A DNA stretch of 64,000 nt from Mustelus asterias. Its lineage: Eukaryota. The notes under the pieces were generated by a model that worked only from the letters and a program-made list of their open reading frames with translations, had not been told where the DNA came from and made no database searches. Position numbers and translations under genes: made by a program. Shown here one piece after another: positions 3,844 to 64,000 of the stretch. The DNA is taken from contig NC_135809.1 in the NCBI RefSeq assembly GCF_964213995.1, positions 36,456,001 through 36,520,000 on the forward strand. Direction: 5' to 3'. Numbering within the stretch: the first letter of the stretch is position 1; each line of letters opens with the position of its first letter.

Positions 3844-4195
3844 CTGAAATATAACATATCGAAAGGTTACTCACAATAAAATAGGTACTGAATTTTAGAA
3901 ATATGTGTCTATCTATATAATAAAATTATTTGTATCTATATGAACATATGATTTGAGATAGTTAGATTCTAATTTGCTTTCCATCTAGTCAGCATCTGAT
4001 TGTAACATGGGTCACATGCTTAGCAGACAAAAATTACATTTGCAAGCCACATACACTTCCACACAAGCATAAAATATCATTAAATATGTTGAAGCAGTTG
4101 TAACTTTGAAATTTCAAGACCAAACCAAACTTTTGACTATATTCAAAAGTGGATTTCTCCATTAGCCCACGACTCAATTTATGAACAACCCAATT

Positions 4196-4365
4196 TGGTT
4201 TGATTTGATTTATTATTGTCACATGTATTAGTATACAGTGAAAAGTATTGTTTCTTGTGCTTATACAGGCAAAGCATACCATTCATAGAGAAGGAAACGA
4301 GAGAGTGCAGAATGTAGTGTTACTGTCATAGCTAGGGTGTAGAGAAAGATTAACTTAATGCAACT
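4196..4365 (-). mobile_element. Rex1/Babar-like LINE 3' tail
   Basis: Minus strand reads ...TTTTCACTGTATACTAATACATGTGACAATAATAAATCAAATCAAA with a short-repeat end. Confidence 0.6.
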
Positions 4366-4645
4366 CAATCCAGTTAGATGCATCAGCTGCTGAGGTTTTT
4401 AATAAACGTTTTGGCAAGAATTTTCCAGCTGTTCACACCCTGTCACCACTGCAAGCGAGGATGGATTTTTTGGCACTCAGCCAACTCTCAGTTCACTGCA
4501 GCAAGACCAGAGTACCCCCTAGGCATGAACTTTCACCCTTTATCTCTACGCCACTTTACAAGAAATTGTCTAGTTTATATTTATATACGAGTGGATAATG
4601 CTGTCTCACCATAAATCTATACATTAAAACTATTTGTTGCAGATA

Positions 4646-5934
4646 TGTCATGCTTTTACATTGTGTCACGTTGATGGAAAATGTGTCTGACTGAGAAATA
4701 CCGATAGTTTCAGCAGCTAGCCAGAAACATATCTGTTTAAAGAGAACGTTTTTTTCAAAAGAAGTACAACAACAGGCATGACTGAAGATGGCTACCACCA
4801 GTCGTCTGATGTCTGGTTCTTGTAAGTTGATAACTTTTCTGGAAAGTTAATTTATGGATTGCACTGTAGACCTTCCCTGACATGTTGTATGGAATCTCAT
4901 ACCTGAGAGATGTCAAAGTCCACTTCAAAACAGGGACTCTTGAAATGAGGGCATTAAAATGCAAAGTGCTTGACTTCCATCAACAATAATTCTGCCAAGA
5001 CATTGGGAACTGCTAACCAGCCAGACACACCCAAAACCCCCAGTGGAGGTTGAAATAACCGCATCTCCCAATTGTTTCTATTATCATGAAATGTGTCAAA
5101 AGTTTCTGAAATCAAAGATCAAAGATGTGATTATGTGTTCGACAACAGTGATTGCAAGGCATGTTAATCGAATTCCTTTATGGAGTACACAGACAGGATG
5201 ATTAGGAACTGTTTTTTCTAAACCAGATGCAGAGAGAAAACTCATTTGGAATCACTGCTGAAAGGAGCAGGAAGGAATCTCTCTCTCGCTGAAGCTAAGA
5301 TTGTCTGCAGAAAGGTGCAGTTACCTCAACTTAAATTCAACTCCAAGATTTTAAAGGAAGCCAGCTAATTTCAAACACCACAATGTTCAATAATCTATGC
5401 CTCAAGGATAAGAAAATGATATAATTTTTAACTTTTATTTGGACTCTACCTTTTCCTACTTCTGTGTATTGACTTTAATCAGGCAATTGAGGTTGGCCTG
5501 TTAGAATATGAGCTCCCTGATTAAGGGCCAAATTGATGGGTCAATCAGGGAGCCTCTTGCTTTGTACTTAACCAGCAGTGTCAGTTCCTCTGGGACTCCA
5601 AGTGTAAACTGCTAACTAAAAGCACTCTGTATGTAGTTGTCAGACTAATAAATTAATGGATTTTGGTGAAGGGACTTCTGCCTCCAAGGACTTATTACAT
5701 TCTGAAATTTGTGTGTATGTGCCATTGCATCTTTTATTATTTTTTCTCAGGTTGAAAAACTAATAAAATTGCTATTTTCTTTCACTCAAGAAAACTTGGT
5801 TTGATTGGACCCTTATTAAAAGGATTGGAAAGAGCATCTATGGGAAAAATGAATTTACAAAAACCTTTGTTGCAACCAACTAAGTGAGTTGAATAAAGGA
5901 GAGCCAGTTCACGCATCCTCACCCAGTCATAACA
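4646..5934 (+). mobile_element. Probable larger solo LTR hosting the 5465-5699 LTR
   Basis: TGTCATG...CATAACA ends and AATAAA near the 3' end. No TSD recognised; left boundary uncertain. Confidence 0.4.
5465..5699 (+). mobile_element. Solo LTR (235 bp) with 5-bp TSD
   Basis: TGTATT...ATTACA termini, internal AATAAA, flanked by TTCTG at 5460-5464 and 5700-5704. Confidence 0.75.
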
Positions 5935-6239
5935 ATTGGTTCAGATGTTAGTTATAATCAAATATAACTGGCTCAATCATACTGATACATTGATTTGCAC
6001 CAATCCCAAAGAAATCGGACTCTCTACTCTCAATCAATCTCATCAGTGATTTCTTTTGATAAAGTGGTTCTTCTAAACATTTTTATTTCTAACCAAAATG
6101 AATAGACTGGAGCCACATTTCCTGCCCTCCCATGGTCAGACAACACATTACACCCATCCAGATTCAGGTGTGCTTGAATTTTCTGTATCGTAGAGTCACG
6201 CTCCATGATTTCAGTGTGAGAGGGGAAGGACATCACCAC

Positions 6240-6900
6240 TGTGCTCTGAGGGAGAAGAGGAGGGAAAGTGCCAGCAAGTAAAGAGTGGCCATGGATAAGA
6301 ACACAAGCTTGAGGCGCTGGAGGAGAGGAAAGACGTATGTTGCATAAAGCGGCTAACTGAGGGGAAAGATGGGGTTAACTGCAGGAGCAGTTTAAATCTG
6401 TAGGTTTTGAGTGAGTTGAAATCTTGTCCCTGGTGTCTTCCATTGTGTCCTCATTTGGTCAATGCAGGAGTGAGAAGTGGAAGAAGAGTGAAGGTTGGCA
6501 GCATGATCTGAGGGAGGGGAGGTTGCATTGAGCCATTTGTAAACAAGGGGGAGGCCACTGCCAGTGTAAATGTTTGGGGGAGGTATTTTGCAATATCATT
6601 TCAGGGAGCAAGATAAGGAGTGCCTGCTTTAATTGAAGAGGGAAGGAGAAGGGGTCATGCACAAATTTAAGAGGCAGATTAATGTGAGGACAGGACTGGA
6701 GTATTTTAAATGAGGGATGGCATGAACTGAGGTGGGGTTGAAGGGACAAGAGTGCCCATGTGAAACAGGGTACTGAGGTGAACGTTTCCAGCAGTAATTG
6801 GATGAGAGGAGTGAGAATACCAGCATAGGAGTGGGTGAAAAATGTGAGCTTCAATGGGGGTGAGGGGCGAAGACTGAAAGGTCAGCTGGGTGGAGCTTTA
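6240..6900 (-). mobile_element. Decayed L2-clade LINE fragment
   Basis: Purine-rich plus strand typical of antisense L2 ORF2. Family assignment by eye. Confidence 0.55.
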
Positions 6901-7023
6901 TACGAATGACACTCCAACGGCACATTCTTCATGAATGTGCTCTCAAAATAACATTATAACATTTCATATGCATTGGTAATTGTCCTCCTTGAATGTGCAA
7001 TAATGTTCAGTAGTGTGTCCTAC

Positions 7024-7255
7024 CTCCACCATTTTTTCCACAGAGGTAAGGGAACCTCCAGACATTTCCAAGTCCAATGGCATATCCCACACAAGACAGC
7101 AAGAAGTCAAATTTTCCCTGCCAGTTTCCTCTGTTTGGTAAGGTTTCACTTTTACCAGCCTGACTCTCTGACGCCTCTACCATTTCTTCCGGCCGTGTCT
7201 CCCTCAGGTTCGGGGAAAAGTTGACCTCCAGCAAAGCTTGTTCTGTCTCCCCCAT
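7024..7255 (-). CDS. SLC6A1-like: GABA transporter GAT-1-like, first coding exon (exon probably extends 5' to acceptor at 7373)
   Basis: ATG at 7255; [11 protein letters not shown]...[36 protein letters not shown](G), the SLC6 TM1 signature with GAT-1-type LCGKNGGG. Donor G|gtagga at 7023. A polypyrimidine tract plus cag acceptor lies at 7374-7400. Confidence 0.93.
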
Positions 7256-8278
7256 CACTGCACGCTCACATCCACTTCACATGAAATAGTTTAAGGCTTA
7301 TGAACCCTCAGCACAACTTAATCACAGTTCTTGGTCAGAATCAAATGTTTGGTCCTGAAGATTTCACTTCACACTGCAAGTGCAAAACAAAGGAAAAAGT
7401 TTATACGAATGTTGTTTCAGCTTTGTTTACATTTAGTGGTGGGGGGGAGGGGGGGGGAGGGTGTGGTTAGCAGGGGCAAGGCAAGAAGAAACATTTTCTC
7501 AAATAAGCTAAGATATAAGATATATTGTTAACATTTCAGCCTCACAGCAGGATGGGTGAAACCCAATCTTGCCAGGTTCTAACAAATGCTTTCCTCAAAG
7601 GAAGTGTCAAAAAATAACTGGTCTGGAGGAAAACTGACACGAAGAGATTTCAAAGCTGGTGCAACAAGTCAGACAATTCAACAGCATTGGGACTTCTGCA
7701 CTACCACAGGCTTTAGTAAAACTTGACAACCTTAACGGTAGCGGAGATAGAAGTGATAGCATGAGGGAGCTGGATTAGCATCAGTAACAAATACAGTTGT
7801 TAATCCATGGAGTTGCTCAGGCTAACAGTGTGAGTAAGCTAGATCGGTAACCGACACAACATGAACCTCAGACCCGATTTTAACTTTGTGGGTTTTGAGT
7901 GAGTTGAGTCTTGTCCCCAGTGTCTTCCACTGTGCCCTCATTCAGTCAGTGTAAGTACTCCTTCCAGTCAGTTTAGAAAATACAAGCACCGACCTGTAAA
8001 AATGGCCTTACAACCTGTCCAGTTCAGTCTGTCAAACAAGTCCTCTTTTGAGATATGATCTGCATATTATTAATTTCTCCCCAGTCTCAAACCTGCTTGC
8101 CTCTGCTTCCTGTCTCATCCCCCACCATCAGCAATACTCTGAATAATAAAAAAAACAGAAACCGACATGAAAAACTGAAGGAACGAGTAATTAGCCAGAA
8201 TTTCTGATTTTATAATAGGTTCTCATATAAGATTCCTTGATATATGGTGGCATGCCTAAGGGGCTTGAGAATTTCTTT

Positions 8279-8540
8279 GTATTTATTTATCTATCTATTT
8301 ATTTATTGGTGCCACAAGTAGGCTTACATTAACACTGCAATGAAGCTACTGTGAAAAGCCCCCAGTTGTCACACTCCGGCGCCTGTTCGGCTACACTGAG
8401 GGAGAGTTTAGCATGGCCAATGCACCTAACCAACATGTCTTTCAAATTATGGGAGGAAACCGGAGCACCTGAAGAAAACCCATGCAGACACAGGGAAACA
8501 GTGACCAAAGTCGGGAATTGAACCCAGGTCCCTGGTGCTG
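8279..8540 (-). mobile_element. V-SINE with alternative tail (type B)
   Basis: V-domain followed by ...TTCACAGTAGCTTCATTGCAGTGTTAATGTAAGCCTACTTGTG...AATAAA. Confidence 0.82.
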
Positions 8541-9227
8541 TTTTATGGCTATATTGCCAGTTCATGCATCCAACTAGGGAATAGAGGACCTACAGAGCAG
8601 ACTGCTGGCTCCTGTAATGGAGGACAATTTTACTGAATTCCTTCAAGTCAGACTTGTTTCTGGAGAGATAGGTACTGCATAGAATTATCAGCACCAGAGT
8701 AATGTCCTGAACAGTTTTGATTGCTCAGGAAGTTAGAGAAGAATTTCCCACATGTTTATTCCCCCAAATTGGTTTTGCTTTATTTCTCATTGCCTTTCCC
8801 AGGATGGTTTTGGGTGGGGTGGAAAGTGTACATTAGTAATATATGAAGTATCAGAACACTGTGGGACATTTGGGTGGACCGGAGCATCTTTTCCTGTCTC
8901 TCATTGCTCGTATATCCGTACGTTCATAACTCACAGTTGGTGAATTCCTTTTGATCTTAAAGCAAATGTCACTGCCATCAGTCAACATAATTGTCATTCT
9001 CCCTTCTACTGAAATCCAGCATAACTGGGAAGACGCAAATAGTACTCAGATGTGTCTCATCCGCTGGCTTGCTATGATGCGCATTTGCTGCAGACTATCT
9101 TCAAAGGGTTTGCTTTTACATCAAAGGCAAATTTGCCATGAAATTCAAGGGCCACATTACAGTCTCATCTCACCTTAACAACTAATACGACAAATAGAAG
9201 CTCCATGAGTAATTGCTCCCACACTTG

Positions 9228-36429: not shown

Positions 36430-39400
36430 AAGCTTAAGGAAGTGAAGTCAGAGATGGAATGGGTAATCACCAGTCAGAAAAAGTGGGGCAGGCAGGAAGT
36501 CAGTGAAGCCCCAGAAAGCATCTCACTCAAGAACCGTTTTTCTGTTGAGAAATGGAGATAGTGACAGTTCCTCTGGGGAGTGCAGCCAGAGCCAAGTTCA
36601 CGGCACTATGGGTGGCTCAGCTGCACAAGGGGAAGGAGTAAGAGTGGAAGAGCAATAGTGGTCAGAGATTCGATAGTGAAGAGTGCAAATAGGTGTCACT
36701 GCGACTGCAGAGGTCACTCCAGGATAGTGTGTTGCCTTCCTGGTGCCAGGGTCAAGGATGTCACTGAACAACTCCAAGACAACCTGAAGGAAGAGAGTGA
36801 ACACTCAGAGGTCGTGGTTCACATAGGTACCAACGACATAGGCAGAAAGAGGGAGGAGGTCCCACAGAAAGAATTTAGGGAGCTGGTTGATTGAAAAGCA
36901 GGACCTCAAAAGTTGTAATTTCTGGATTACTCCCGATGAATTCAGGAACAGAAGGATAGGGCAGGTGAATGTGTGGCTGAAGAGATGATGCAGGAGAGAA
37001 GGCTTTAGTTTTCCCGGATCACTGGATCCATGTCTGGGAAAGGTGGGAGCTGTACAAGTTGGACAGTTAGCTCTTGAACTGGAATGAGACCAACTTCCTT
37101 GTGGGGAGGTTTGCTAGTGCTGTTGGGGGGGGGGGGGGGGGTTTAAACTAATTTGGCAAGAGTTGGCTCACAGTTTGTAGGTATGATCAAATATAGAACA
37201 AAAACGGAGTCAGTCTGGAAGGCAGGGCAAAGAGATGCATGTTAAGGCACAAGGGAATATGGCACGGTTGAATGGCATTTATTTTAATGCAAGCAGTCTT
37301 ACAGGTAAGACTGAGGAACTGAGGGCTTTGATTAACACATGAGGGTATGATGTTATTGCTGTCACAGAGGTATGGTTGAAGGAGGGGCAGGATTGGCAGT
37401 TCAGTATTCTGGGGTACAGAATTTTCAGACGAGATGGAGGATATAAAAAAGGACTTGGTGTTGCAATACCAAGGTGTCAATTACTGCAGTGAGGAGGGAT
37501 GATATCTCCGCAAATATCATTTGATATATATCAAATATATATATCAAATGAGGGCAGATGGGTGGAAGTTAAAACAAAAAGGGGCAATCATGTGGCTGGA
37601 CATGTACCATAGGCCCCCAAACTGTCAGGGAGAGGTAGAAGAGTAAATACGTAGACAAATCTGAGAAGTGTTAAAATAATAGGCTAATAATAGTAGGGGA
37701 TTTCAACTTCCCCAATATTAATTGGATATTCAAAGTGTGAAAGGCTTTAGAGGGGGTGAAATTCTTAAACTGCATCCAGGTTTTTGAGCTTTTTGAGCCA
37801 GCACACAGAAAGTCCTGCAAGAGAGGAGACTTTTTAAGGAATGAAGCCGGGCAGGCGGTGGAGGTGTCAATGGGGTAGCATTTCGGGAATAGTGACCATA
37901 ACTCGGTAGGATTTAAGGTAGTTATAGAAAAGGACAAAGATGGACTGGAAATAAGGTTTCTGGGGGATGGCTGATTTTAAAAGGATAAGACAGGATTGAG
38001 CCAAAGCGAACTGGGAGTAACTACATGTCGGAAGATTCACATCAGAATGGTGGGAGTCATTCAAAGATGAAATACAGAATGTACAATGCTAACATGTTCA
38101 AATAAGGGTAAAGGGTGGAACCAAGTGCAGAGAACCATTGATGCTTTAGGAGTACAGAAAGCGCAAGGGGTACTTAAAAGGAAAGAAATTAGGAGTGCGG
38201 AGAGGGGTCACTGGTGGGCAAAATCAAGGAAAATCCTAAGGTGCTCTATAAGTCTATTAAGGGCAAAAGGATAACCAGGGAACGAGTAGGACCCATTAGC
38301 GACCAAAATAGCAACCTGTGTGTGAAGCCAAAAGATGTAGGTGAGGTATTAAACTAATATTTTGCATGTGTTCACGATAAAAAAGGATGACGTAGGTATA
38401 GAAAGCAGGGATGGGGACTGTGATATAATTGAACAGATTAGCATTGAGAGGGAGGAAGTGTTAGCTGTTTTAGCAGGTTTAAAAGTGGGTAAATCCCCGG
38501 GCCTAGATGAGATGTATCCTAGGCTGCTGTGTGAGGCAAGTGGGGTAGATTTCTGGGCTCTGATGCTAATTTTCAAATCCTCTCTGGCCACAGGAGAGGT
38601 AAGATGTCTAACAACATCAGGTTAAAGTCCAACAGGTTTATAAACCTGTTGGACTTTAACCTGGTGTTGTTAGACTTCTTACTGTGTTTACCCCAGTCCA
38701 ACGCCGACATCGCCACATCACAGGAGAGGTGCCAGAGGACTGGAGGACAGCTAATGTGGTACTATTGTTCAAGAGACGGAGTAGGGAAAAAGCAGGTAAT
38801 TACAGACCAGTGAACCTAACATCAATAGTAGGGAAATTATTGGAAATATTTTTGAGGGACAGAATTAATTTCCACTTGGAAAGGCAAGGATTAATCAAGG
38901 ATAGTAAGCATGGCTTTATCAGGGGGAGATCATGCCTAATACATTTAATTGAATTTTTCGAGGAGGTGACTAGGTGTGTAGATGAGGGCAGTGCAGTTGG
39001 TAGTTTGCACGGACTTCAGTAAGGCTTTTGACAAGGTCCCACACAGGAGACTGATCAAGATGGTACGAACCCATGGGGTCCAGGCCACTTTGGCAAATTG
39101 CATCCAAAATTGGTTTAGTGGCAAGAGGCAGAGGGTAATGGTTAAAGGTTGCTTTTGCGGCTGGAAGCCTGTGTACCACAGGGATCGGTGCTGGGTCTCT
39201 TGCTGTTTGTAGTGTACATTAATGATCTAGATATGCATGTGGGGGAGTATAATCAGTAAGTTTTCAGATGACACATGAATTGATGGTGTGGTAAATAGCA
39301 AGGAGGAGAGCCTTAGATTGCAGGATGATATACATGGGCTGGTCAGATGGGCAGAACAGTGGCAAAAGTGTGAGGTGATGCATTTTGGGACAAACAAGGC

Positions 39401-40859: not shown

Positions 40860-41617
40860 ACGCTCATGTAGCATCTTTTAAAAACATCCCACGGTGCTGT
40901 GCAGGAGCATTTAAAACTAAAATATGACACTGAACTTCATAGTTATTAGGTTAGATGATCGAAGGATTGGTCCAAATTGTTGGTTTTAGAGAGGGTCTAA
41001 AAGGAAGAAAGTGAGATAACGAGGTGGAGAGCTTAGGGCCTAAGAAACTGAAGGCACGGCCACCAATGGTGCAGCAATTAAAACTGGGGATGTTCAAGGT
41101 GATGAAGGAGCAGCGCTCCGAAAGCTCGTGATTCCAAATAAACTTGTTGGACTTTAACCTGGTGTTGTGAGATGTCTTACTGTGCTCACCCCAGTCCAAT
41201 GCATCTGACCTATGTGGCTCGGAGTCAGACTTTGTTTTATAATGTTCCTGCGAAGTGCCTTGCGACATTTTATGTTAAAGGCGCTAATGTTTATTATGTT
41301 AAAGGCTTTATTATGTTAAAGGCATCTCCATATCAAAGGTAGAAATAGGCAGTCTTAGTGATGGTACAAATGAGGTCGGAAGTTCTTCTCGGGATCAAAT
41401 GTGACAGCGAGGTTGCAAACAGACTGACTTAATCTGTTGCCAGGGAGAGAGATGGAGTCAGTAGTTAGGGAATGGAGTTCAGAGCAGGGACAAAAAAAAG
41501 GCTTCAGTTCTCCTAGTATTAGAGGAAATTCTTGCACATCTAGTACGAGATACTGGAAATGCAGTCTGATCATTTCAAAATAGTGCAGGAGTCAAGAGAG
41601 GTAAAATTGAGACTAAT
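40860..41617 (-). mobile_element. L2-clade LINE 3' fragment (with nested Penelope-like piece)
   Basis: IGGRAFSFLGPKL and CNLAVTFDPE, which are L2 C-terminal motifs. Confidence 0.75.
41099..41335 (+). mobile_element. Family P2 fragment with hammerhead-like core, interrupted by an L2-tail copy
   Basis: TGATGAAGGAGCAGCGCTCCGAAAGCTC...CCCCAGTCCAATGCATCT[insert]GCATCTCCATATCA. Confidence 0.75.
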
Positions 41618-49561: not shown

Positions 49562-49697
49562 ATGATGTGGAGATGCCGGCGTTGTACTGGGGTAAACACA
49601 GTAAGAAGTTTAACAACACCAGGTTAAAGTCCAACAGGTTTATTTGGTAGCAAAAGCCACACTGTTGGACTTTAACCTGGTGTTGTTAAACTTCTTA
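49562..49697. mobile_element. Family P2 fold-back mini-element
   Basis: Inverted arms plus tail. TSD CTCTGTGGGTTGTT at 49548-49561 and 49698-49711. Confidence 0.85.
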
Positions 49698-50249
49698 CTC
49701 TGTGGGTTGTTCCCAGGGATGCAGAGATAAACATTAACTGCCAATGGAGGACCATCAACTCAAGGAAAGCATTTTTGGTCAGTCTGAAATGAATTTGTTG
49801 GTCCTCCAGTGCCAAGAGCTGTCAATGGCCCAAGGTTCAGGAATACATGCCAAGGAACACACTGCCACAAAAGGACATGAGGCTCTCTCACTATGGTCCA
49901 CCAGGGGTCTGAAAACTGTATAAAAACTCAAGCTATAATTTTGACATGCGACATTGTAATTAATTGGAAATGTAGTAACATACAGCAGTAAGAAACATTG
50001 TTTTGCACTTAATGTAATGTAAACGTTGAACTGTCATGTAATATTTGTATAATTTTATGAAGATATGGGGGGGGATAAAGTCCGAATGATTAAGCTCCAG
50101 ACACACTGGCTGGAGAGGCGACAGGGAGCTAACGCCCAGAGAGCAGGAGCCCGGTCGGTAAAGGAGGGAGACTCTGGGGGAAGTTGGTGCCCCGGTCACC
50201 CGCTCACAGCGGCTTCAGCGAAGGAAACACACCCTTACCCCTCACTTAC

Positions 50250-50618: not shown

Positions 50619-50868
50619 ATGACGGACCGCGCTCCACTGCTCGAATACGAGGAAGGTCCCTCTGTCACCTTCCCGTCCTGGGATGGCACCAGCCCGGCTG
50701 CCGGCAACGGAGCCGGATTAGCGCCCGGCGTGTCCGGCGGCGGAGCTGCCGAGAGCTGGAGCCCGGGGTCGGAGCGGGAGGCGGCCGCGACTCCGGGAGC
50801 TCAGCAGCAGGAGGAGGAAGAGGAGCAGGTGGTGGCGGTGTTTGTGGTGACTTTCGACACCAGAGCAG
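50619..50868 (+). CDS. DENND11: DENN domain-containing protein 11 (KIAA1147/LCHN), coding exon 1
   Basis: MTDRAPLLEYEEGPS...EEEQVVAVFVVTFDTRA(G), then donor G|gtgaga at 50869. Matches human APLL..EGP and EEDQVVAVFVVTFDPRSG. Confidence 0.92.
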
Positions 50869-51071
50869 GTGAGAGGCCGGGTTCTCAACAGCAGCATTCC
50901 CCCCATACAGAGTCCGCAATTAAAATGGCTGCAGAGTCAACGGGAAGATGGCGGGGTATCCGTGACAGCAGCAGGAGGAGGAGGAGGTATCCATGGGGAC
51001 AGGGAGGAGGAAGGGAGTATCTGTGGTACTCGAGGGGGGCAGGGGATGGGTTGTCTGTCCCCTACTTTGGT

Positions 51072-51179
51072 AAGAGTTTTAACAACACCAGGCTAAGGAT
51101 CTTTATCCTGGTGTCTTTAGCCTGGTGTTGTTAGAACTCTTACTGTGTTTACCCCAGTCCAACGCCGGCATCTCCACAT
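51072..51179. mobile_element. Family P2 fold-back mini-element
   Basis: Inverted arms plus tail. TSD CCCTACTTTGGT at 51060-51071 and 51180-51191. Confidence 0.85.
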
Positions 51180-52133
51180 CCCTACTTTGGTCACAGCTAA
51201 GTGATTTTAATCTGCAACAAAATGTAGGATTGATGCCTATGTCCCTTTCATGTTATCGAGATGTAAAAAGTTCACTGCAGACCCAGTTGCTCGGGCGTAA
51301 CTTAGTCACAGTAAGAGAGAGAATACAACAGGTGATTGAAATGTCATTGTTCCTTTCATTGGAAGCCAGTTGGATTTGACTTAGATTGACCTCTGCCATG
51401 TAGAATCTGCTTAGATAAATGAATTATCCTGGAGTTTGTGGTGGACGAGATGGGAAGGGCACAGTAAGTCCAATGCTAGCATCTCCACACAAAATGGGAA
51501 AGGGTTGCTGCCTGATTGCTACCTGCCATCCTGCAAGTTCTGTTGGATGGTTGTGGCATTGGTTGCTTTTGAATTTGCCAAGAGTTGTATCCAAGATCAT
51601 AGTGTGCCGGAGTGAAAATGATATGAAATAAAGTATTATCACGTATTTAACATTAGATTAAATGAACAAGTGGGTGTTGTAATGCATTGAGCAGAGGAAG
51701 CCCAATGCTCTATCTACTCTGTTCTTCCAAATATGCCGTGGGTTTCCTTACTGTGATTCAAGGGACAGTAATCTTGTATTGTGTCAGCTTTCCTTGTAGG
51801 AATTCAGTGAGCCTTTTTAAAACCTTACCGTGCTTTGCTCTTGACTACTAATAGTAATCTGTTCTGCAATTCTATCAGCATTACTTGCCTTTCTTCCCAG
51901 TCCAGTCATCTATATATTTTGTGTAATAAACTGAAGATTGCTAAGTCGAGGATACCTTTTGGAATTGTGAATCTGAAGTTTTGGATATGTTCTTAGGGAA
52001 AAGGGAGTTTTGGGCAAGATAAATTCCAGGCCCTAATTGTTGCTGTCTGTCCCTCAATTAGAGGATGACGTCTACTCAGGATCACAAGTTTCTTCCATGG
52101 GTCTTCATGTGACTGAATAGGCTGATTCTCTAT

Positions 52134-53790
52134 TTGCGTATACTCCCTCCGAGTGTCTCGGAGGGAGTTGTTGACCCGTTAGAGAAAATCTCCATTACAA
52201 GGGAGGAAGTGTTAGGTTTTTTAGGGAACATTAAAATTGACAAAGCCCCAGGGCCTGATGGCATCTATCCTAGACTGCTCAGGGAGACGAGAGATGAAAT
52301 TTATGGGCCTCTGACGGAAATCTTTGTTGCTTCTTTGGACATAGGTGAGGTCCCTGAGGATTGGAGGATAGCGAATGTGGTCCCGTTGTTTAAGAAGGGT
52401 AGCAGGGATAACCCGGGAAATTATAGGTCGGTGAGCTTGACGTCTGTGGTAGGGAAGTTGTTGGAGAGGATTCTTAGAGATAGGATGTACGTGCATTTAG
52501 AACGGAACAATCTCATTAGTGACAGACAGCATGGTTTTGTAAGAGGGAGGTCGTGCCGTACAAATTTGGTGGAGTTTTTTGAGGAAGTGATAAAAACGGT
52601 TGACGGAGGAAGGGCCGTGGATGTCGTCTATATGGATTTCAGTAAGGCATTTGACAAAGTCCCATATGGCAGGTTGGTTAAGAAGGTTAAGGCTCATGGG
52701 ATACAAGGAGAAGTGGCTAGATGGGCGGAGAACTGGCTTGGCCACAGGAGACAGAGGGTCGAAGGGTCTTTTTCCGGCTGGAGGTCTGTGACCAGTGGTG
52801 TTCCGCAGGGCTCTGTACTGGGACCTCTGCTATTTGTGATATATATAAATGATTTGGAAGAAGGTGTAACTGGTGTTATCAGCAAGTTTACGCATGACAT
52901 GAAGATGGCTGGACTTGCGGATAGCGATGAGCATTGTCGGGCAATACAGCAGGATATAGATAGGCTGGAAAATTGGGCAGAGAGCTGGCAGATGGAATTT
53001 AATCCAGATAAATGCGAAGTGATGCATTTTGGAAGAAATAATGTAGGGAGGAGTTATACAATAAATGGCAGAGCCATCAAGAGAATAGAAACACAGAGGG
53101 ACCTAGGTGTGCAAGTCCACAAATCCTTGAAGGTGGCAACGCAGGTGGAGAAGGTGGTGAAGAAGGCATATGGTATGCTTGCCTTTATAGGACGGGGTAT
53201 AGAGTATAAAAGCTGGAGTCTGATGATGCAGCTGTATAGAACGCTGGTTTGGCCACATTTGGAGTACTGCGTCCAGTTCTGGTTGCCACACTACCAGAAG
53301 GAAGTGGAGGCATTAGAGAGAGAGTGCAGAGAAGGTTTACCAGGATGTTGCCTGGTATGGAGGGTCTTAGCTATGAGGAGAGATTGGGTAAACTGGGGTT
53401 GTTCTCCCTGGAAAGATGGAGAATGAGGGGAGATCTAATAGAGGTGTACAAGATTATGAAGGGGATAGATAGGGTGAACGGTGGGAAGCTTTTTCCCAGA
53501 TCAGAAGTGACGATCACGAGGGGTCACGGGCTCAAGGTGAGAGGGGCGAAATATAACTCAGATATTAGAGGGATGTTTTTTACACAGAGGGTGGTGGGGG
53601 CCTGGAATGCGCTGCCAAGTAGGGGGTGGAGGCAGGCACGCTGACATCGTTTAAGACTTACCTGGATAGTCACATGAGCAGCCTGGGAATGGAGGGATAC
53701 AACTGATTGGTCTAGTTGGACGAAGGAGCAGCACAGGCTTGGAGGGCCGAAGGGCCTGTTTTCCTGTGCTGTACTGTTCTTTGTTCTTTT
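52134..53790 (+). mobile_element. CR1 LINE, 5'-truncated, one frameshift
   Basis: RT ORFs 52134-53426 and 53249-53644; tail TGTTCTTTGTTCTTT. Confidence 0.92.
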
Positions 53791-54163: not shown

Positions 54164-55345
54164 AGTAGTGGGGTCCGGAGTGCAGGGTTAACTCCCTTTT
54201 CTTTCCTTCTGTACCACTGCTCTGCCTCCTCATTAAGACGTTGTCTTAAAACACGATACAGCTTGATGGACAAGTTGTCACCATTCTGAAGGATAGTAGC
54301 AAGCTCTTCCCAATCATTAATGTCAATGCTACCACACTTCAAGGAGGGCTTTGGGTTGGCTTTGAAGTGTTTTCTTTGTGCTCCCTTGGAATATTGGTCA
54401 CTTGAGCGTTGAGAAAAGAGGACCTAGCAGGGGGGGATGATTTTCGGCCTTCCAGGCAGAATCCAGTTCATTGAAGTTGATTTTACCACAGTTTTCCATG
54501 AATGCTTGTGGAGCTGGCTTCGAGAAGGACATTAACATTTGTTCCACGGCCTTTCATTAAATTCACAGGATGTGACAGAGGTATTGCTGCTGTAATCTTT
54601 CGAGCACTCTTACATTTTGTTGATACACAGCCTAGGTCTCACTGCAGTACAGGAGTGTGATGGTGACTATTGCTCTGTACACTTGGACTTCTGTTGACTT
54701 GCAGAGGCCTTTGTTGTCAAACATGCTGCTGTAGTTTGTAGAAGGCTGTGCTGGCACAGTTAATCCAGTCTGAAATCACCTCATCAATGGTGACTGTTAG
54801 AGAGATGGCCGCCAAATATTCCAAAGTGTCTCCTTCAACATTTCTGGGAGGTGAGTATCTGGCTGACCAGGTGCAAGTTGACATGAGTTTTGTTTTGGCA
54901 ACATTCAAAGACATGCTGAATTTCCTCTGTGCAGAACTGAAAAGAGTTGCTTGCAAATCTGGTGCAGGGAATGCATAGGAATGGATAATGTAGAGGTACT
55001 TCGGTTAACTTTGAAAATGGATTGGATTTAAAATCCTTCCAGCCTGTCCAACCTTGTATCACTTCAACCACTGGTCCCCTGACTTTAGCCTCCTGTGCAT
55101 GCCAGTTCCCCACCCTCATTTCTCTACTGCATCTTTAGTGCGAGAGATTTCAGTCGTTTTTTGAAACTCCTTCCCAAACCTTTGCACTTCTAGCTTTCAC
55201 CTCTCTGTTATGTCTAGTAGCTCTTGTACAAAGGACGGAGTGTCTGCTCTCGGGCACTTTTAGGCATTTTACATTGAAAGCATTGAGGTATTAGTGAATG
55301 TGTGTACTATAGTGAATGACTATAATGACTGCTGTTCCAAGTAAT

Positions 55346-55475
55346 CACAATAAGAGTTTTAACAACACCAGGTTAAAGTCCAACAGGTTTATTTGGTAGC
55401 AAATGCCACTAGCTTTCGGAGCGCTGCTGCTTCGTCAGATGGAGTGGATATCTGCTCACAAATAAGGAATACCAA
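55346..55475 (-). mobile_element. Family P2 element retaining hammerhead core
   Basis: Same AACAACACCAGGTTAAAGTCCAACAGG core. Direct repeat GTTCCAAGTAAT at 55334-55345 and 55476-55487. Confidence 0.78.
55406..55442 (-). ncRNA. Minimal type-I hammerhead ribozyme motif
   Basis: CCAU CUGACGA A GCAGC-AGC-GCUCC GAAA GC UA GUGG. The core is complete, stem I is CCAU/GUGG, stem II has one mismatch, and palindromic AGCU replaces stem III. Confidence 0.7.
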
Positions 55476-55662
55476 GTTCCAAGTAATACCTTCTAAGCAA
55501 TGATGCTTGCAGATATAGATAGTGTCTGGAAACATGATACATGATCTGTAGAAAAAATGAATAATTGGCACTTTAGATGTAGGTCGTTTTAACAAAGTGT
55601 GCAAACTCAGCTTAATCCCTCTGTTCTGAATGCTTCCACGTTTTGTTGCTGATTCTGGAACA

Positions 55663-55835
55663 GACCAAAGATGTGCAGGTAGGTGAATTGGCCATACTAA
55701 ATTGCCCCTTGGGGGTGTAGGGGGATTACCAGGATAAACACGTGAGGTTACGGGGATAGGGCCTGGGTAGGATTGTTGTTGATGTAGGCTCAATGGGCCG
55801 AATGGCTTCCTTCTGCACTGTAGGGGTTCTATGAT
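55663..55835 (+). mobile_element. V-SINE type A, 3' half
   Basis: CCAAAGATGTGCAGG...GGTTCTATGAT. Confidence 0.8.
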
Positions 55836-56789: not shown

Positions 56790-59700
56790 GACCATTGGGA
56801 CCTCTTTAGGGGCAGGGGTGATCTGTATACAAAAAACGGGTGGAACTTGAATCACACGGGGACCAATATCCTGGCCGGTAGGTTGGCTAAGGTTACTGGG
56901 GAGAATTTAAACTAGATAGGTTGGGGGGAGGGGAGCTAGAAGAGTTGACTAGGATCAAGGAACTAATTGATGGGGTGGAGGATGCAGGGGTAAGGGGAAT
57001 TACAAAATTAATGGTAGAGGAGAGGGTGCAAGTGAATGAAGGCGGTAATTTAGATAAGGGAGTAGAGGGAGAGGGTGTTCGTGACTCATCAAAGCGGGTC
57101 CAGATAAAAGCTGGAATAAGGACACTTTGCCTGAATGCACGAAGCATTCGGAACAAGGTAAATGAGTTGATGGTGCAAATCAGCACGAGTGGGTACGATC
57201 TAGTGGCCATTACAGAAACGTGGCTGAAAGGTGACCAGGACTGGGAGATGAATATCCAGGGGTATCAGGCGTTTAGGAAGAATAGACAGGAAGGAAAAGG
57301 TGGTGGGGTCGCGCTATTAATAAGAGATAATATCAGGGTAGTACTGAGGGATGACATAGGCTCTGAGGAACAAAACGTGGAATCATTATGGGTAGAGATG
57401 AGGAATAGTAGAGGGAGAAAGACACTAGTAGGTGTGGTATATAGGCCCCCAAATAATAATGTTGAGGTAGGGAGGGCTATAAACAAGCAGATAAGGGATG
57501 CGTGTAAAAACGGAACGGCAATAATCATGGGGGACTTCAACATGCACATTGACTGGCAGACTCAAGTCGGTAAGGGTGGAATGGAGGAAGAGTTCTTAGA
57601 ATGCTGTCGGGATAGTTTCCTTGAACAGCATGTTACGGAACCGACGAGGGAACGAGCTATTTTGGATCTGGTATTGTGTAACGAGGTAGGTAGAATTAAG
57701 GATCTTATTGTGAAGGACCCTCTTGGGTCTAGTGACCACAATATGGTCGAATTTCTGATTCAGATGGAAGAGGAGAAAGTTTGGTCCCAAACCAGTGTCC
57801 TCTGTTTGAACAGAGGGAAATATGATAGGATGAGGGATGAATTGGCTAAGGTAGACTGGGAGAGCAGGCTGGCAGGTAGGATAGCTGAGGAACAGTGGAG
57901 GATTTTTAAGGAGATCCTTTTCAGTTCTCAGCAAAAATATATTCCAGCAAAAAACAAGGATTGTAAGAAAAGGGAGAACCAGCCGTGGATAACGAAGGAA
58001 ATAAAGGAGAGTATTAAAATAAAAACAGCTGCGTACAGAGTGGCCAAAAATAGTGGAGAAACAAGTGATTGGGAAAAATTTAAGAAACAACAAAGAGAGA
58101 CTAAGAAAGCGATAAAGAAAGGAAGGATAGACTATGAAGCTAGGCTAGCAATTAATATAAAAAATGATAGTAAAAGTTTTTATAAATATATAAAAAGGAA
58201 TAGAGTGGCTAGAGTGAATGTTGGACCCTTGGAGGACGAGAGGGGGGAGTTAATAGTGGGAAATGAGGATATGGCTGAGTCTTTAAATAAGTTTTTTGTG
58301 TCGGTCTTCACGGTGGAGGACACAAATAGTTTGCCAAATATTAACGATAGAGGGTTGGCAGCAGGAGAAATACTTAATACAATTAATGTTACCAGAGAGG
58401 CAGTGCTGGGTAGACTAATGGGACTGAAGGTGGATAAGTCCCCTGGTCCGGATGGAATGCATCCCAGGGTATTGAAAGAAATGTCAGAGGTAATAGTGGA
58501 TGCGTTAGTGATTATTTATCAAAACTCGTTGCATTCTGGGGTAGTGCCGGTTGATTGGAAAACGGCTAATGTTACGCCGCTGTTTAAAAAAGGAAGGAGA
58601 CAAAAGGCGGGTAACTATAGGCCGGTCAGCTTAACGTCTGTAGTAGGGAAAATGCTGGAATCCATTATTAAAGAGGAGATAGCAGGGCATCTGGATAGAA
58701 ATGGTTCGATCAATCAGACGCAGCATGGATTCATGAGGGGAAAGTCGTGCTTGACGAACATGTTGGATTTTTATGAAGATGTGACTAGGGCGGTTGATGG
58801 AGGAGAACCGGTGGATGCGGTGTTTTTGGATTTCCAAAAGGCGTTTGATAAGGTGCCCCATAAAAGGCTGCTGAAGAAGATTAGGGCACACGGAGTTGGG
58901 GGTAGTGTGTTAAAGTGGATTGGGGACTGGCTATCCGACAGGAAGCAAAGAGTCGGAATAAATGGGTGTTTTTCCGGTTGGAGGAAGGTAACTAGTGGCG
59001 TGCCGCAGGGATCGGTACTCGGGCCGCAACTATTTACCATTTATATAGATGATCTGGAGGAGGGGACGGAGTGTAGGGTAACGAAGTTTGCAGACGACAC
59101 AAAGATAAGTGGAAAAGTGAATCGTGTGGAGGACGGAGAAGATCTGCAGAGAGATTTGGACAGGCTGAGTGAGTGGGCGAGGATATGGCAAATGGAGTAT
59201 AACGTTGAGAAATGCGAGGTTATACACTTTGGAGGAAATAATAACAAATGGGATTACTATCTCAATGGAAACAAATTAAAACATGCTACCGTGCAAAGGG
59301 ACCTGGGGGTCCTTGTGAATGAGACGCAAAAGCCCAGTCTGCAGGTACAACAGGTGATCAAGAAGGCAAATGGGATGTTGGCCTATATTGCGAAGGGGAT
59401 AGAATATAAAAGCAGGGATGTCTTGATGCACCTGTACAGGGCATTGGTGAGGCCGCAGCTGGAATACTGTGTGCAGTATTGGTCCCCTTATATGAGGAAG
59501 GATATATTGGCATTGGAGGGAGTGCAGAGAAGGTTCACCAGGTTGATACCTGAGATGAGGGGTTTGGATTATGAGGAGAGGCTGAGGAGATTGGGTTTGT
59601 ACTCGTTGGAGTTTAGAAGGATGAGGGGGGATCTTATGGAGACTTATAAGATAATGCGGGGGCTGGATAGGGTAGAAGTGGAGAGATTCTTTCCACTTAG

Positions 59701-60024
59701 TAAGGAAGTTAAAACTAGAGGACACAGCCTCAAAATAAAGGGGGGTCGGTTTAAGACAGAGTTGAGGAGGAACTTCTTCTCCCAGAGGGTGGTGAATCTC
59801 TGGAATTCTCTGCCCACTGAGGTGGTGGAGGCTACCTCGCTGAATATGTTTAAAGCGTGGATGGATGGATTCCTGATCGGTAAGGGAATTAAGGGTTATG
59901 GGGATCAGGCGGGTAAGTGGTACTGATCCACGTCAGATCAGCCATGATCTTATTGAATGGCGGGGCAGGCTCGAGGGGCTAGATGGCCTACTCCTGCTCC
60001 TATTTCTTATGTTCTTATGTTCTT
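56790..60024 (+). mobile_element. Young 5'-truncated CR1-clade LINE (ORF1 C-terminus + intact ORF2 + 3' tail)
   Basis: Begins in the ORF1 end (..GTNILAGRLAKVTGENLN*) and ends in a (TTCTTATG)n tail. It interrupts a minus-strand CR1 whose sequence rejoins across the insertion. Confidence 0.95.
56921..59926 (+). CDS. CR1 ORF2: APE endonuclease + reverse transcriptase, uninterrupted
   Basis: Endonuclease motifs CLNARSIRNK, AITETWL, IMGDFN, LDLVL and SDHN. RT motifs [33 protein letters not shown] and FADD. No stops over 1001 codons; the true initiation codon is uncertain. Confidence 0.93.
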   Translation: MGGGELEELTRIKELIDGVEDAGVRGITKLMVEERVQVNEGGNLDKGVEGEGVRDSSKRVQIKAGIRTLCLNARSIRNKVNELMVQISTSGYDLVAITETWLKGDQDWEMNIQGYQAFRKNRQEGKGGGVALLIRDNIRVVLRDDIGSEEQNVESLWVEMRNSRGRKTLVGVVYRPPNNNVEVGRAINKQIRDACKNGTAIIMGDFNMHIDWQTQVGKGGMEEEFLECCRDSFLEQHVTEPTRERAILDLVLCNEVGRIKDLIVKDPLGSSDHNMVEFLIQMEEEKVWSQTSVLCLNRGKYDRMRDELAKVDWESRLAGRIAEEQWRIFKEILFSSQQKYIPAKNKDCKKRENQPWITKEIKESIKIKTAAYRVAKNSGETSDWEKFKKQQRETKKAIKKGRIDYEARLAINIKNDSKSFYKYIKRNRVARVNVGPLEDERGELIVGNEDMAESLNKFFVSVFTVEDTNSLPNINDRGLAAGEILNTINVTREAVLGRLMGLKVDKSPGPDGMHPRVLKEMSEVIVDALVIIYQNSLHSGVVPVDWKTANVTPLFKKGRRQKAGNYRPVSLTSVVGKMLESIIKEEIAGHLDRNGSINQTQHGFMRGKSCLTNMLDFYEDVTRAVDGGEPVDAVFLDFQKAFDKVPHKRLLKKIRAHGVGGSVLKWIGDWLSDRKQRVGINGCFSGWRKVTSGVPQGSVLGPQLFTIYIDDLEEGTECRVTKFADDTKISGKVNRVEDGEDLQRDLDRLSEWARIWQMEYNVEKCEVIHFGGNNNKWDYYLNGNKLKHATVQRDLGVLVNETQKPSLQVQQVIKKANGMLAYIAKGIEYKSRDVLMHLYRALVRPQLEYCVQYWSPYMRKDILALEGVQRRFTRLIPEMRGLDYEERLRRLGLYSLEFRRMRGDLMETYKIMRGLDRVEVERFFPLSKEVKTRGHSLKIKGGRFKTELRRNFFSQRVVNLWNSLPTEVVEATSLNMFKAWMDGFLIGKGIKGYGDQAGKWY

Positions 60025-63545: not shown

Positions 63546-63974
63546 TCAAAGTAAAAGTGCAAATGCAGCTCAAAACTAAGCTGAACTGCTGGCTAAATTC
63601 TAAATTTAAAGTCACACTTTCATCCTGGGACTTCAATTCTTCTGTGCTGCATAACTACAAGTGAGCAAAAGGGTGGAGATAGGGAGAAATGTTAATGTAT
63701 GATACAGCCCCCAACAGAGAAATTCTGACGTTTCTCACAGATTAGAATAGTCATCCAATGTGAAAACTGTTAATCAACAATCCGAGGATCTGAGTTAGAA
63801 ATCTTACATTTATTCAGATCCATTTGTAGGATTTTTAGGCGAAAAATAAATCTCTCTGAAATTGAGATGTGGCCGTTGTTAGCTTCAACCTGTGTTCAGT
63901 GAAGTGCTGTGAAACTGCAGTGTGAATTGACCAACATGCTCTGCTCTCATGATAATTGACATCCTTCTCCACAG

Positions 63975-64000
63975 GTAACATTGTTGAATGGTGTCTGCCA
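63975..64000 (+). CDS. DENND11: DENND11 coding exon 2 (5' part; runs off window)
   Basis: ccttctccacag|GT AAC ATT GTT GAA TGG TGT CTG CCA translates to (G)NIVEWCLP, continuing exon 1 in phase 1 (human GNMVEWCLP). Confidence 0.9.

Follow-up and report, generated by a model that had tools for sequence, protein, structure and literature searches.

The locus and its host gene

The window, that is, the whole 64-kb stretch of DNA analysed here, carries part of the gene DENND11. The profile PF09804 (DENND11) matches three plus-strand exons, from window position 63968 onward, and exon 2 alone matches it with an E-value of 1.9e-8. Upstream lies a GC-rich candidate exon 1, with an ATG at 50619 and a GT donor at 50869, which is phase-compatible with the acceptor at 63975.

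50619..50868, plus strand: candidate first coding exon of DENND11 (ATG, GT donor at 50869, phase 1 fit to the next exon)
63975..64000, plus strand: start of the next DENND11 coding exon (PF09804 match)

Since candidate exon 1 on its own has no Pfam match, DENND11 included, the designation 'intron 1' for the 13 kb that follow it is likely, short of proven. A first-pass annotation had placed a hammerhead ribozyme motif antisense in DENND11 intron 1; its antisense position within the gene stands, given the PF09804 exons on the plus strand, while the intron number is only likely. The same intron contains, on the plus strand, a 1,011-aa stop-free frame at 56891-59926 whose endonuclease and RT domains (Pfam RVT_1, E = 3.8e-33, and Exo_endo_phos) mark it as the near-intact ORF of a LINE inserted in sense, as well as a 437-aa RT fragment of a different LINE at 52113-53426.

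A minimal hammerhead core on the minus strand

The motif under study occupies 37 nt and is read on the minus strand from 55442 to 55406, with the following features:

55406..55442, minus strand: minimal type I hammerhead motif, with a 4-bp stem I, core, extra A, C.C mismatch in stem II and AGCU palindrome
55409..55410, minus strand: predicted scissile bond after A17, in a CUA triplet, with G1.1 against the family-majority A
55429..55429, minus strand: stem II position 10.2, C for G, which breaks the second pair (28 of 11,604 genomic matches)

Read letter by letter, it has the architecture that had been described for it. Stem I is formed by CCAU (55442-55439) and GUGG (55409-55406), giving 4 bp including one U.G pair, and is followed by the core C3-U4-G5-A6-C7-G8-A9 (55438-55432) and an extra A between positions 9 and 10.1 (55431). 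Stem II consists of GCAGC (55430-55426), the loop AGC and GCUCC (55422-55418), in which the G10.1-C11.1 pair (G55430-C55418) is intact and the second pair is a C.C mismatch (55429:55419), the single mismatch noted at first pass. G12-A13-A14-A15.1 (55417-55414) leads into the palindrome AGCU (55414-55411), which stands in for stem III, and A17 (55410) precedes the predicted scissile bond 55410/55409, correctly placed in the earlier reading. All the catalytic core nucleotides claimed are thus present, and so is a second departure from the family that had gone unmentioned, namely G1.1 at 55409, where 33 of 34 pattern-picked copies have A.

Generic searches say little about this motif. A loose hammerhead descriptor has one match in the window, the 55442-55406 motif, and also matches 10 of 60 dinucleotide-shuffled windows, so that on its own it does not go beyond chance. 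The 37-mer folds no better than its shuffled versions (z = 0.23), the folding z-scores of five window stretches are all unremarkable, and a search of the whole window against Rfam at gathering score gave no match. It is because of the family evidence presented below, and not because of descriptor, folding score or Rfam, that the motif can be called a real hammerhead. Its letters spell out a minimal hammerhead core of type I, complete and of the stem-III-less, dimer-cleaving kind, as first proposed. Neither the window nor two neighbouring 10-kb stretches yielded a second core on the same strand.

A truncated Penelope-like insert with a target-site duplication

The motif lies within a short insert bounded by an exact direct repeat, the target-site duplication (TSD):

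55346..55475, minus strand: 130-bp insert, a 5′-truncated, ORF-less, tail-less 3′ pLTR stub of a Penelope-like element (PLE), with a family match from about 55472
55334..55345, strand not assigned: TSD copy at the 3′ end of the element, 12 bp, exact, from repeat comparison
55476..55487, strand not assigned: TSD copy at the 5′ end of the element, 12 bp, exact; in a relative's contig the flanks are present and the insert absent

The insert terminates at the tail-less 3′ end of its family, and its target begins with ATT, the preference of the anole PLE endonuclease according to the available part of PMC11167929. In run X3 (organism B), a contig without differences extends across the 3′ junction and on into the element. 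Run X7 (organism C) contains one contig, of 885 nt, that matches both flanks (54700-55345 and 55510-55709), with 26 letters between them where 22 would be expected with one TSD copy, and with 55 differing letters among 846 aligned, a flank divergence of about 6.5%. This empty site, seen in one contig of one run, implies that the insertion is younger than the split from organism C, which we regard as likely on that single contig.

The parent family

A 111-nt query from the insert has 1,279 candidates in the 3.68-Gb genome, 40 of which were scored and are 98-100% identical. At 30 such loci the similarity upstream is staggered, from less than 50 bases to 1.2 kb, and in 10 of the 30 (judged by eye) PLE RT or endonuclease-like frames lie upstream; a 347-aa piece of one locus, L003, matches 117 scored places at no less than 95-96% identity. 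Full-length relatives have frames of 873-944 aa. Among 12 fetched loci, chosen among those with the longest frames, four have a frame of 910-913 aa enclosed by direct pLTRs, 3.0-3.1 kb apart, with a hammerhead core in both, and in three of these four the pLTRs are 99.6-99.8% alike. Three further loci (L147, L154 and L156) have long frames that end in window-type pLTRs (87-90%). The four elements with a core in both pLTRs are the youngest and belong to a sister type of hammerhead, with 82-84% identity to the window insert. The young elements L149, L150, L151 and L152 (G000:C23, C6, C3023 and C10) have 913-aa frames and pLTRs 99.3-100% alike, which suggests recent activity of the sister subfamily.

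The parent frame matches Pfam RVT_1 (E = 4.3e-10) and GIY-YIG (E = 7e-4, under the curated cut-off), and its translation contains a DKG motif and, in L003 and L149, a CX4CX2C linker. Parent copies thus have the single ORF with RT and C-terminal GIY-YIG of an EN+ PLE, together with partial-tandem direct pLTRs, inverted 5′ copies and an optional 30-40-nt tail, while the window stub is ORF-less. The available part of Craig et al. 2021 (PMC8557442) describes the same arrangement for Neptune-clade EN+ PLEs, that is, a single ORF, DKG, RT, a CX4CX2C linker, a C-terminal GIY-YIG with internal cysteines and downstream histidines, tandem and inverted pLTRs and an optional tail of about 35 nt. The linker that joins RT to EN fits the Neptune form CX2-5CxxC; Nematis also has this motif and Poseidon, unlike the family here, is described in that part of the paper as being without a linker zinc finger, so that the linker motif, from which alone the clade is taken, would mark Neptune or Nematis rather than Poseidon.

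In a 600-kb sample (12 fixed positions), 36 PLE fragments were found, most of them short, ORF-less copies, which extrapolates to roughly 2 x 10^5 fragments genome-wide. Their 3′ ends fall into two clusters about 35 nt apart (17/36 and 13/36), a spacing that is the signature of the PLE tail (PMC11167929). At the junction between 5′ pLTR and ORF in L149 (G000:C23, minus strand), a 35-nt tail, ending at the second preferred 3′ end, finishes at the ORF ATG. The insert in the window is, in sum, a stub of the 3′ pLTR of a PLE whose longer copies carry RT and GIY-YIG frames, and this origin, absent from the first-pass annotation, explains the presence of the hammerhead motif.

Family-level evidence for the hammerhead

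A 35-nt degenerate pattern of the motif has 11,604 exact matches in the genome, as opposed to none for the reversed control, which, together with the variation between subfamilies, makes the motif non-chance. The variation was tallied in 218 motif instances from 217 loci, many of them pattern-picked and therefore biased, and a few perhaps counted twice. In these, pair 1 of stem I is U-A in 142 and C-G in 58, and pair 3 of stem II is A-U in 158, G-U in 31 and G-C in 26; N7 varies freely between C, A, U and G; position 17 is A, U or C, with G in three instances; and the extra A at 9/10.1 is present in 214. Variation is concentrated at N7, H17 and loop 2, a pattern that is what a hammerhead tolerates.

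Over 69 distinct rows, the paired fraction is 0.857 against a shuffled maximum of 0.839, and for the fixed-position sample alone 0.789 against 0.784; this covariation consists of a handful of subfamily-level changes, comes partly from pattern-picked loci and is compared with a shuffle that ignores relatedness. The MAFFT alignment A1 of 28 hand-picked variants, which misplaces the 3′ strand of stem I between subfamilies, was excluded from the pair counts. In the fixed-position sample, core and both stems are intact in 11 of 22 instances, and three of the 22 look spurious. For typical copies (55463-55390 on the minus strand and L007), folding also predicts a longer stem I, with a 7-bp helix past a 7 x 1 internal loop, which in these models could supply a loop 1 for tertiary contact.

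Predicted folding and activity of the window copy

The core nucleotides expected of PLE minimal hammerheads (C3 U4 G5 A6 N7 G8 A9, G12 A13 A14 A15.1 and U16.1 H17), the extra nucleotide at 9/10.1, the G10.1-C11.1 pair, a palindromic 15.2-16.2 without helix III and a location inside a PLE pLTR are all found in the window copy, in which helix I and helix II are predicted to be unstable. The stem II mismatch is shared by 28 of the 11,604 pattern matches, three of which also carry G1.1, the pair being kept in the other 11,576. A further short stretch becomes relevant here:

55443..55447, minus strand: CCACU, predicted partner of AGUGG (55410-55406), which buries A17; part of the minimum free energy fold in every context that includes CCACU

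The following energies come from nearest-neighbour models, which ignore Mg2+, tertiary contacts and help from protein. The stem II hairpin is predicted at +1.1 kcal/mol in the window copy as opposed to -5.8 without the mismatch, and A1.1>G is predicted to let CCACU (55447-55443) pair with AGUGG, burying A17 in an inactive register. In context, the pair probabilities of the hammerhead helices are about 0 for the window copy and 0.5-1.0 for the typical copy L007, and the hammerhead fold lies 9.8 kcal/mol above the ensemble in the former and 1.8 to 2.1 kcal/mol above it in the latter; with flanks, it is 4.1-4.6 kcal/mol uphill for L002, which has G1.1 only. As a double hammerhead, the window copy is predicted at +8 to +24 kcal/mol, versus +3.5 to +17 for copies with an intact stem II, and in this strand-swapped dimer form it is the worst, or within 0.1 kcal/mol of the worst, of seven in all four contexts. 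Since the youngest full-length subfamily also scores poorly (+3.9 to +6.1 kcal/mol in context and +8 to +17.5 as a dimer), these energies discriminate only roughly.

On these models the window copy is probably inactive as a hammerhead, although all catalytic nucleotides and the G10.1-C11.1 pair are intact. It had been put forward as the best candidate in the window for residual catalytic RNA; it is the sole complete core found there, but its promise for residual catalysis is not borne out, as this lone pLTR stub bears two rare, destabilising changes and no partner for it was found on the same strand. It is best described as a solo, antisense, lineage-specific and structurally damaged member of its family.

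Truncation points at the predicted cut site

With cleaved RNA as template, copies would be expected to start at the cut. The genome has 51,302 exact 3′ anchors; extended 4 nt across the cut they number 45,928, and 3 nt further 44,407. Hence 89.5% of the copies with the 3′ side (45,928/51,302) read through the predicted cut site, which implies that most templates were uncut at this point. Immediately 5′ of the cut, breaks are commoner than 6 nt upstream: at the cut there are 2,559 matches, of which a script scored 17 of the first 30 as breaks and inspection by eye about 66 of the first 100, while the control 6 nt upstream has 601 matches, about 58 of the first 100 being breaks (by eye), and the control 4 nt downstream has 1,608, nearly all of the first 100 being breaks (by eye), the denominators of both controls being estimated. 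A break is in many cases a fold-back junction, placed at a local near-palindrome, and in some cases repeats an event already seen from the opposite arm. A pile-up of breaks specific to the cut was accordingly considered and rejected, since the level 4 nt downstream is similar and largely made up of fold-backs. Genomic truncation points thus carry no footprint specific to the cut site, and a small cleaved share may exist. Genome-wide in G000, fold-back junctions are concentrated in a zone that coincides with a near-palindrome about 10 nt 3′ of the hammerhead cut; of the first 100 matches listed at the cut, about a quarter (by eye) share a single exact junction type.

Comparison with known systems

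Minimal hammerheads in the pLTRs of metazoan PLEs were described in 2014 by Cervera and De la Pena (PMC4209133). The family described here matches four hallmarks given in that paper, and the likeness covers a type I core with a 4-bp helix I, an unpaired nucleotide at 9/10.1 and G10.1-C11.1; a palindromic 15.2-16.2 without helix III, with the motif in both pLTRs of full elements; and an occurrence mostly as solo motifs in truncated copies, thousands per genome and in several subfamilies. Helix II, in contrast, has 5-6 bp here and 7-8 bp in the Schistosoma families, and is broken in the window copy, unlike in the minimal hammerheads of that paper; at least 11,604 copies match one pattern here, compared with 4,000-9,000 in coelacanth and Xenopus. 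In the main text and one supplement file of PMC4209133 we found no shark example, and none of the papers listed by our literature searches for shark PLE hammerheads describes them. A minimal hammerhead from S. mansoni showed no activity as a monomer and weak activity as a dimer or trimer (PMC4209133), and the available part of the review PMC6765202 credits dimer cleavage by minimal hammerheads to Lunse et al.

The anole Poseidon element PAc is described by Frangieh et al. 2024 (PMC11167929), and in the part of that paper available to us it shares with the present family two preferred 3′ ends, an ATT target, a hammerhead upstream of the priming sites and mostly uncleaved templates. The ORF of PAc begins inside the hammerhead, with priming 111-118 nt into the ORF, whereas the present family has its hammerhead about 130 nt upstream of the ATG, at which the tail ends. 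According to the same part of the paper, the anole hammerhead is cleaved only with the element's protein, is dispensable for insertion and left no ends in RNA-seq, and uncleaved RNA is the main template in vitro; that about nine in ten inserted copies here read through the cut is a small data point in agreement with this last result. Non-LTR retrozymes, as described in the available part of bioRxiv 10.64898/2026.07.22.740005, also carry a type I hammerhead in pLTR-derived sequence; they are tandem arrays of at least two units and have been reported in one chondrichthyan genome, and one of nine Xenopus dimers was cleaved. The window insert, in contrast, is a single TSD-flanked truncation, with a single same-strand core across the window and its two 10-kb neighbours.

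The kind of motif is therefore already known, and the window copy is one more, rather damaged member of a very large family. Being among the more damaged members, it matters little in itself; the family, which has young full-length frames and hammerhead subfamilies with compensatory changes, could serve to test PLE hammerhead cleavage in vivo.

Proposed origin and rival explanations

We are highly confident that the insert is a 130-bp stub of a PLE 3′ pLTR with a 12-bp TSD, whose hammerhead is likely an inert passenger. In our model, the element's GIY-YIG endonuclease would have nicked AT-rich DNA in the DENND11 intron, and reverse transcription would have begun at the more upstream of the two 3′ ends that the family prefers, passed through an uncleaved hammerhead and come to a halt once about 130 nt had been copied. 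Within the parent element, the motif is predicted to be half of a strand-swapped double hammerhead, in which the two AGCU palindromes form stem III and which is probably aided by the element's protein. G10.2>C and A1.1>G, both rare in the family, were likely gained at or after insertion, and are predicted to unfold stem II and to lock the cut site in a competing helix.

Weak residual activity is the alternative to which we give most weight, while judging it unlikely: an antisense intron transcript might be cut in trans with sibling pLTR RNA and PLE protein. The complete core of the window copy, tens of thousands of siblings with the same AGCU palindrome and the existence of intact full-length PLE frames would all favour such a reaction, as does the protein-assisted cleavage shown for the anole PLE in the available part of PMC11167929. 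Against this, stem II is intramolecular even in a dimer and remains predicted to be unstable, the competing helix is predicted to bury A17, the stub lacks the tail and ORF start, the region that the anole protein is thought to bind according to that same source, and no minus-strand promoter was identified. The more general idea that solo copies pair in trans with sibling RNAs and PLE protein, and so clip host intronic or antisense transcripts, seems to us decidedly improbable; if true, it would amount to a genome-wide, retroelement-derived RNA cleavage network.

That the insert is no truncated PLE but a monomer from an independent family of non-LTR retrozymes or SINEs is very improbable. The dominance of short, ORF-less copies in the fixed-position sample would fit such a family, and solo retrozyme monomers are described in the available part of bioRxiv 10.64898/2026.07.22.740005, but the 5′ ends are staggered, from tens of bases to more than 1.2 kb, and run straight into the PLE ORF, and the 13 same-strand core pairs in the examined loci include no tandem array of short, regular units. 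A ribozyme domesticated within the intron to regulate DENND11, comparable to the hammerheads conserved in amniote introns, might be suspected from the position in the first large intron of a conserved gene. We hold this to be more improbable still, as the motif is antisense to the pre-mRNA instead of in sense, the insert is absent at the orthologous site of organism C (one contig, at about 6.5% flank divergence) and so shows no orthologous conservation, and the changes break the structure rather than keep it. Chance resemblance to a hammerhead, finally, could be argued from the descriptor matches in shuffled windows, the lack of an Rfam match and the folding z near 0; the conserved position in both pLTRs of full-length PLEs, the compensatory stem changes and the confinement of most variation to tolerant sites (N7, H17, loop 2) make its probability next to negligible for this copy, and at family level it is largely refuted. 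The preferred reading thus remains that of a truncated PLE stub carrying its hammerhead as a passenger.

Other fragments of the family in the window

A second fragment, bearing part of a hammerhead and compared with the motif at first pass, lies about 14 kb away:

41100..41202, plus strand: sister-subfamily fragment (CUC triplet), which starts at U4 and has an incomplete core, from sequence comparison

This copy (position 41099) has a G in place of C3 and lacks the 5′ strand of stem I; being on the opposite strand, it is not a cis partner of the 55442-55406 motif. The same PLE group is represented by three more pLTR stubs of fold-back (inverted) form, none with a hammerhead core, at 38599-38719, 49566-49699 and 51071-51180, each flanked by a target-site duplication of 12-14 bp, so that three of the four other PLE fragments in the window have such duplications. 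In the 49566-49699 stub, the longer arm starts at or beside the predicted cut site of the sister subfamily.
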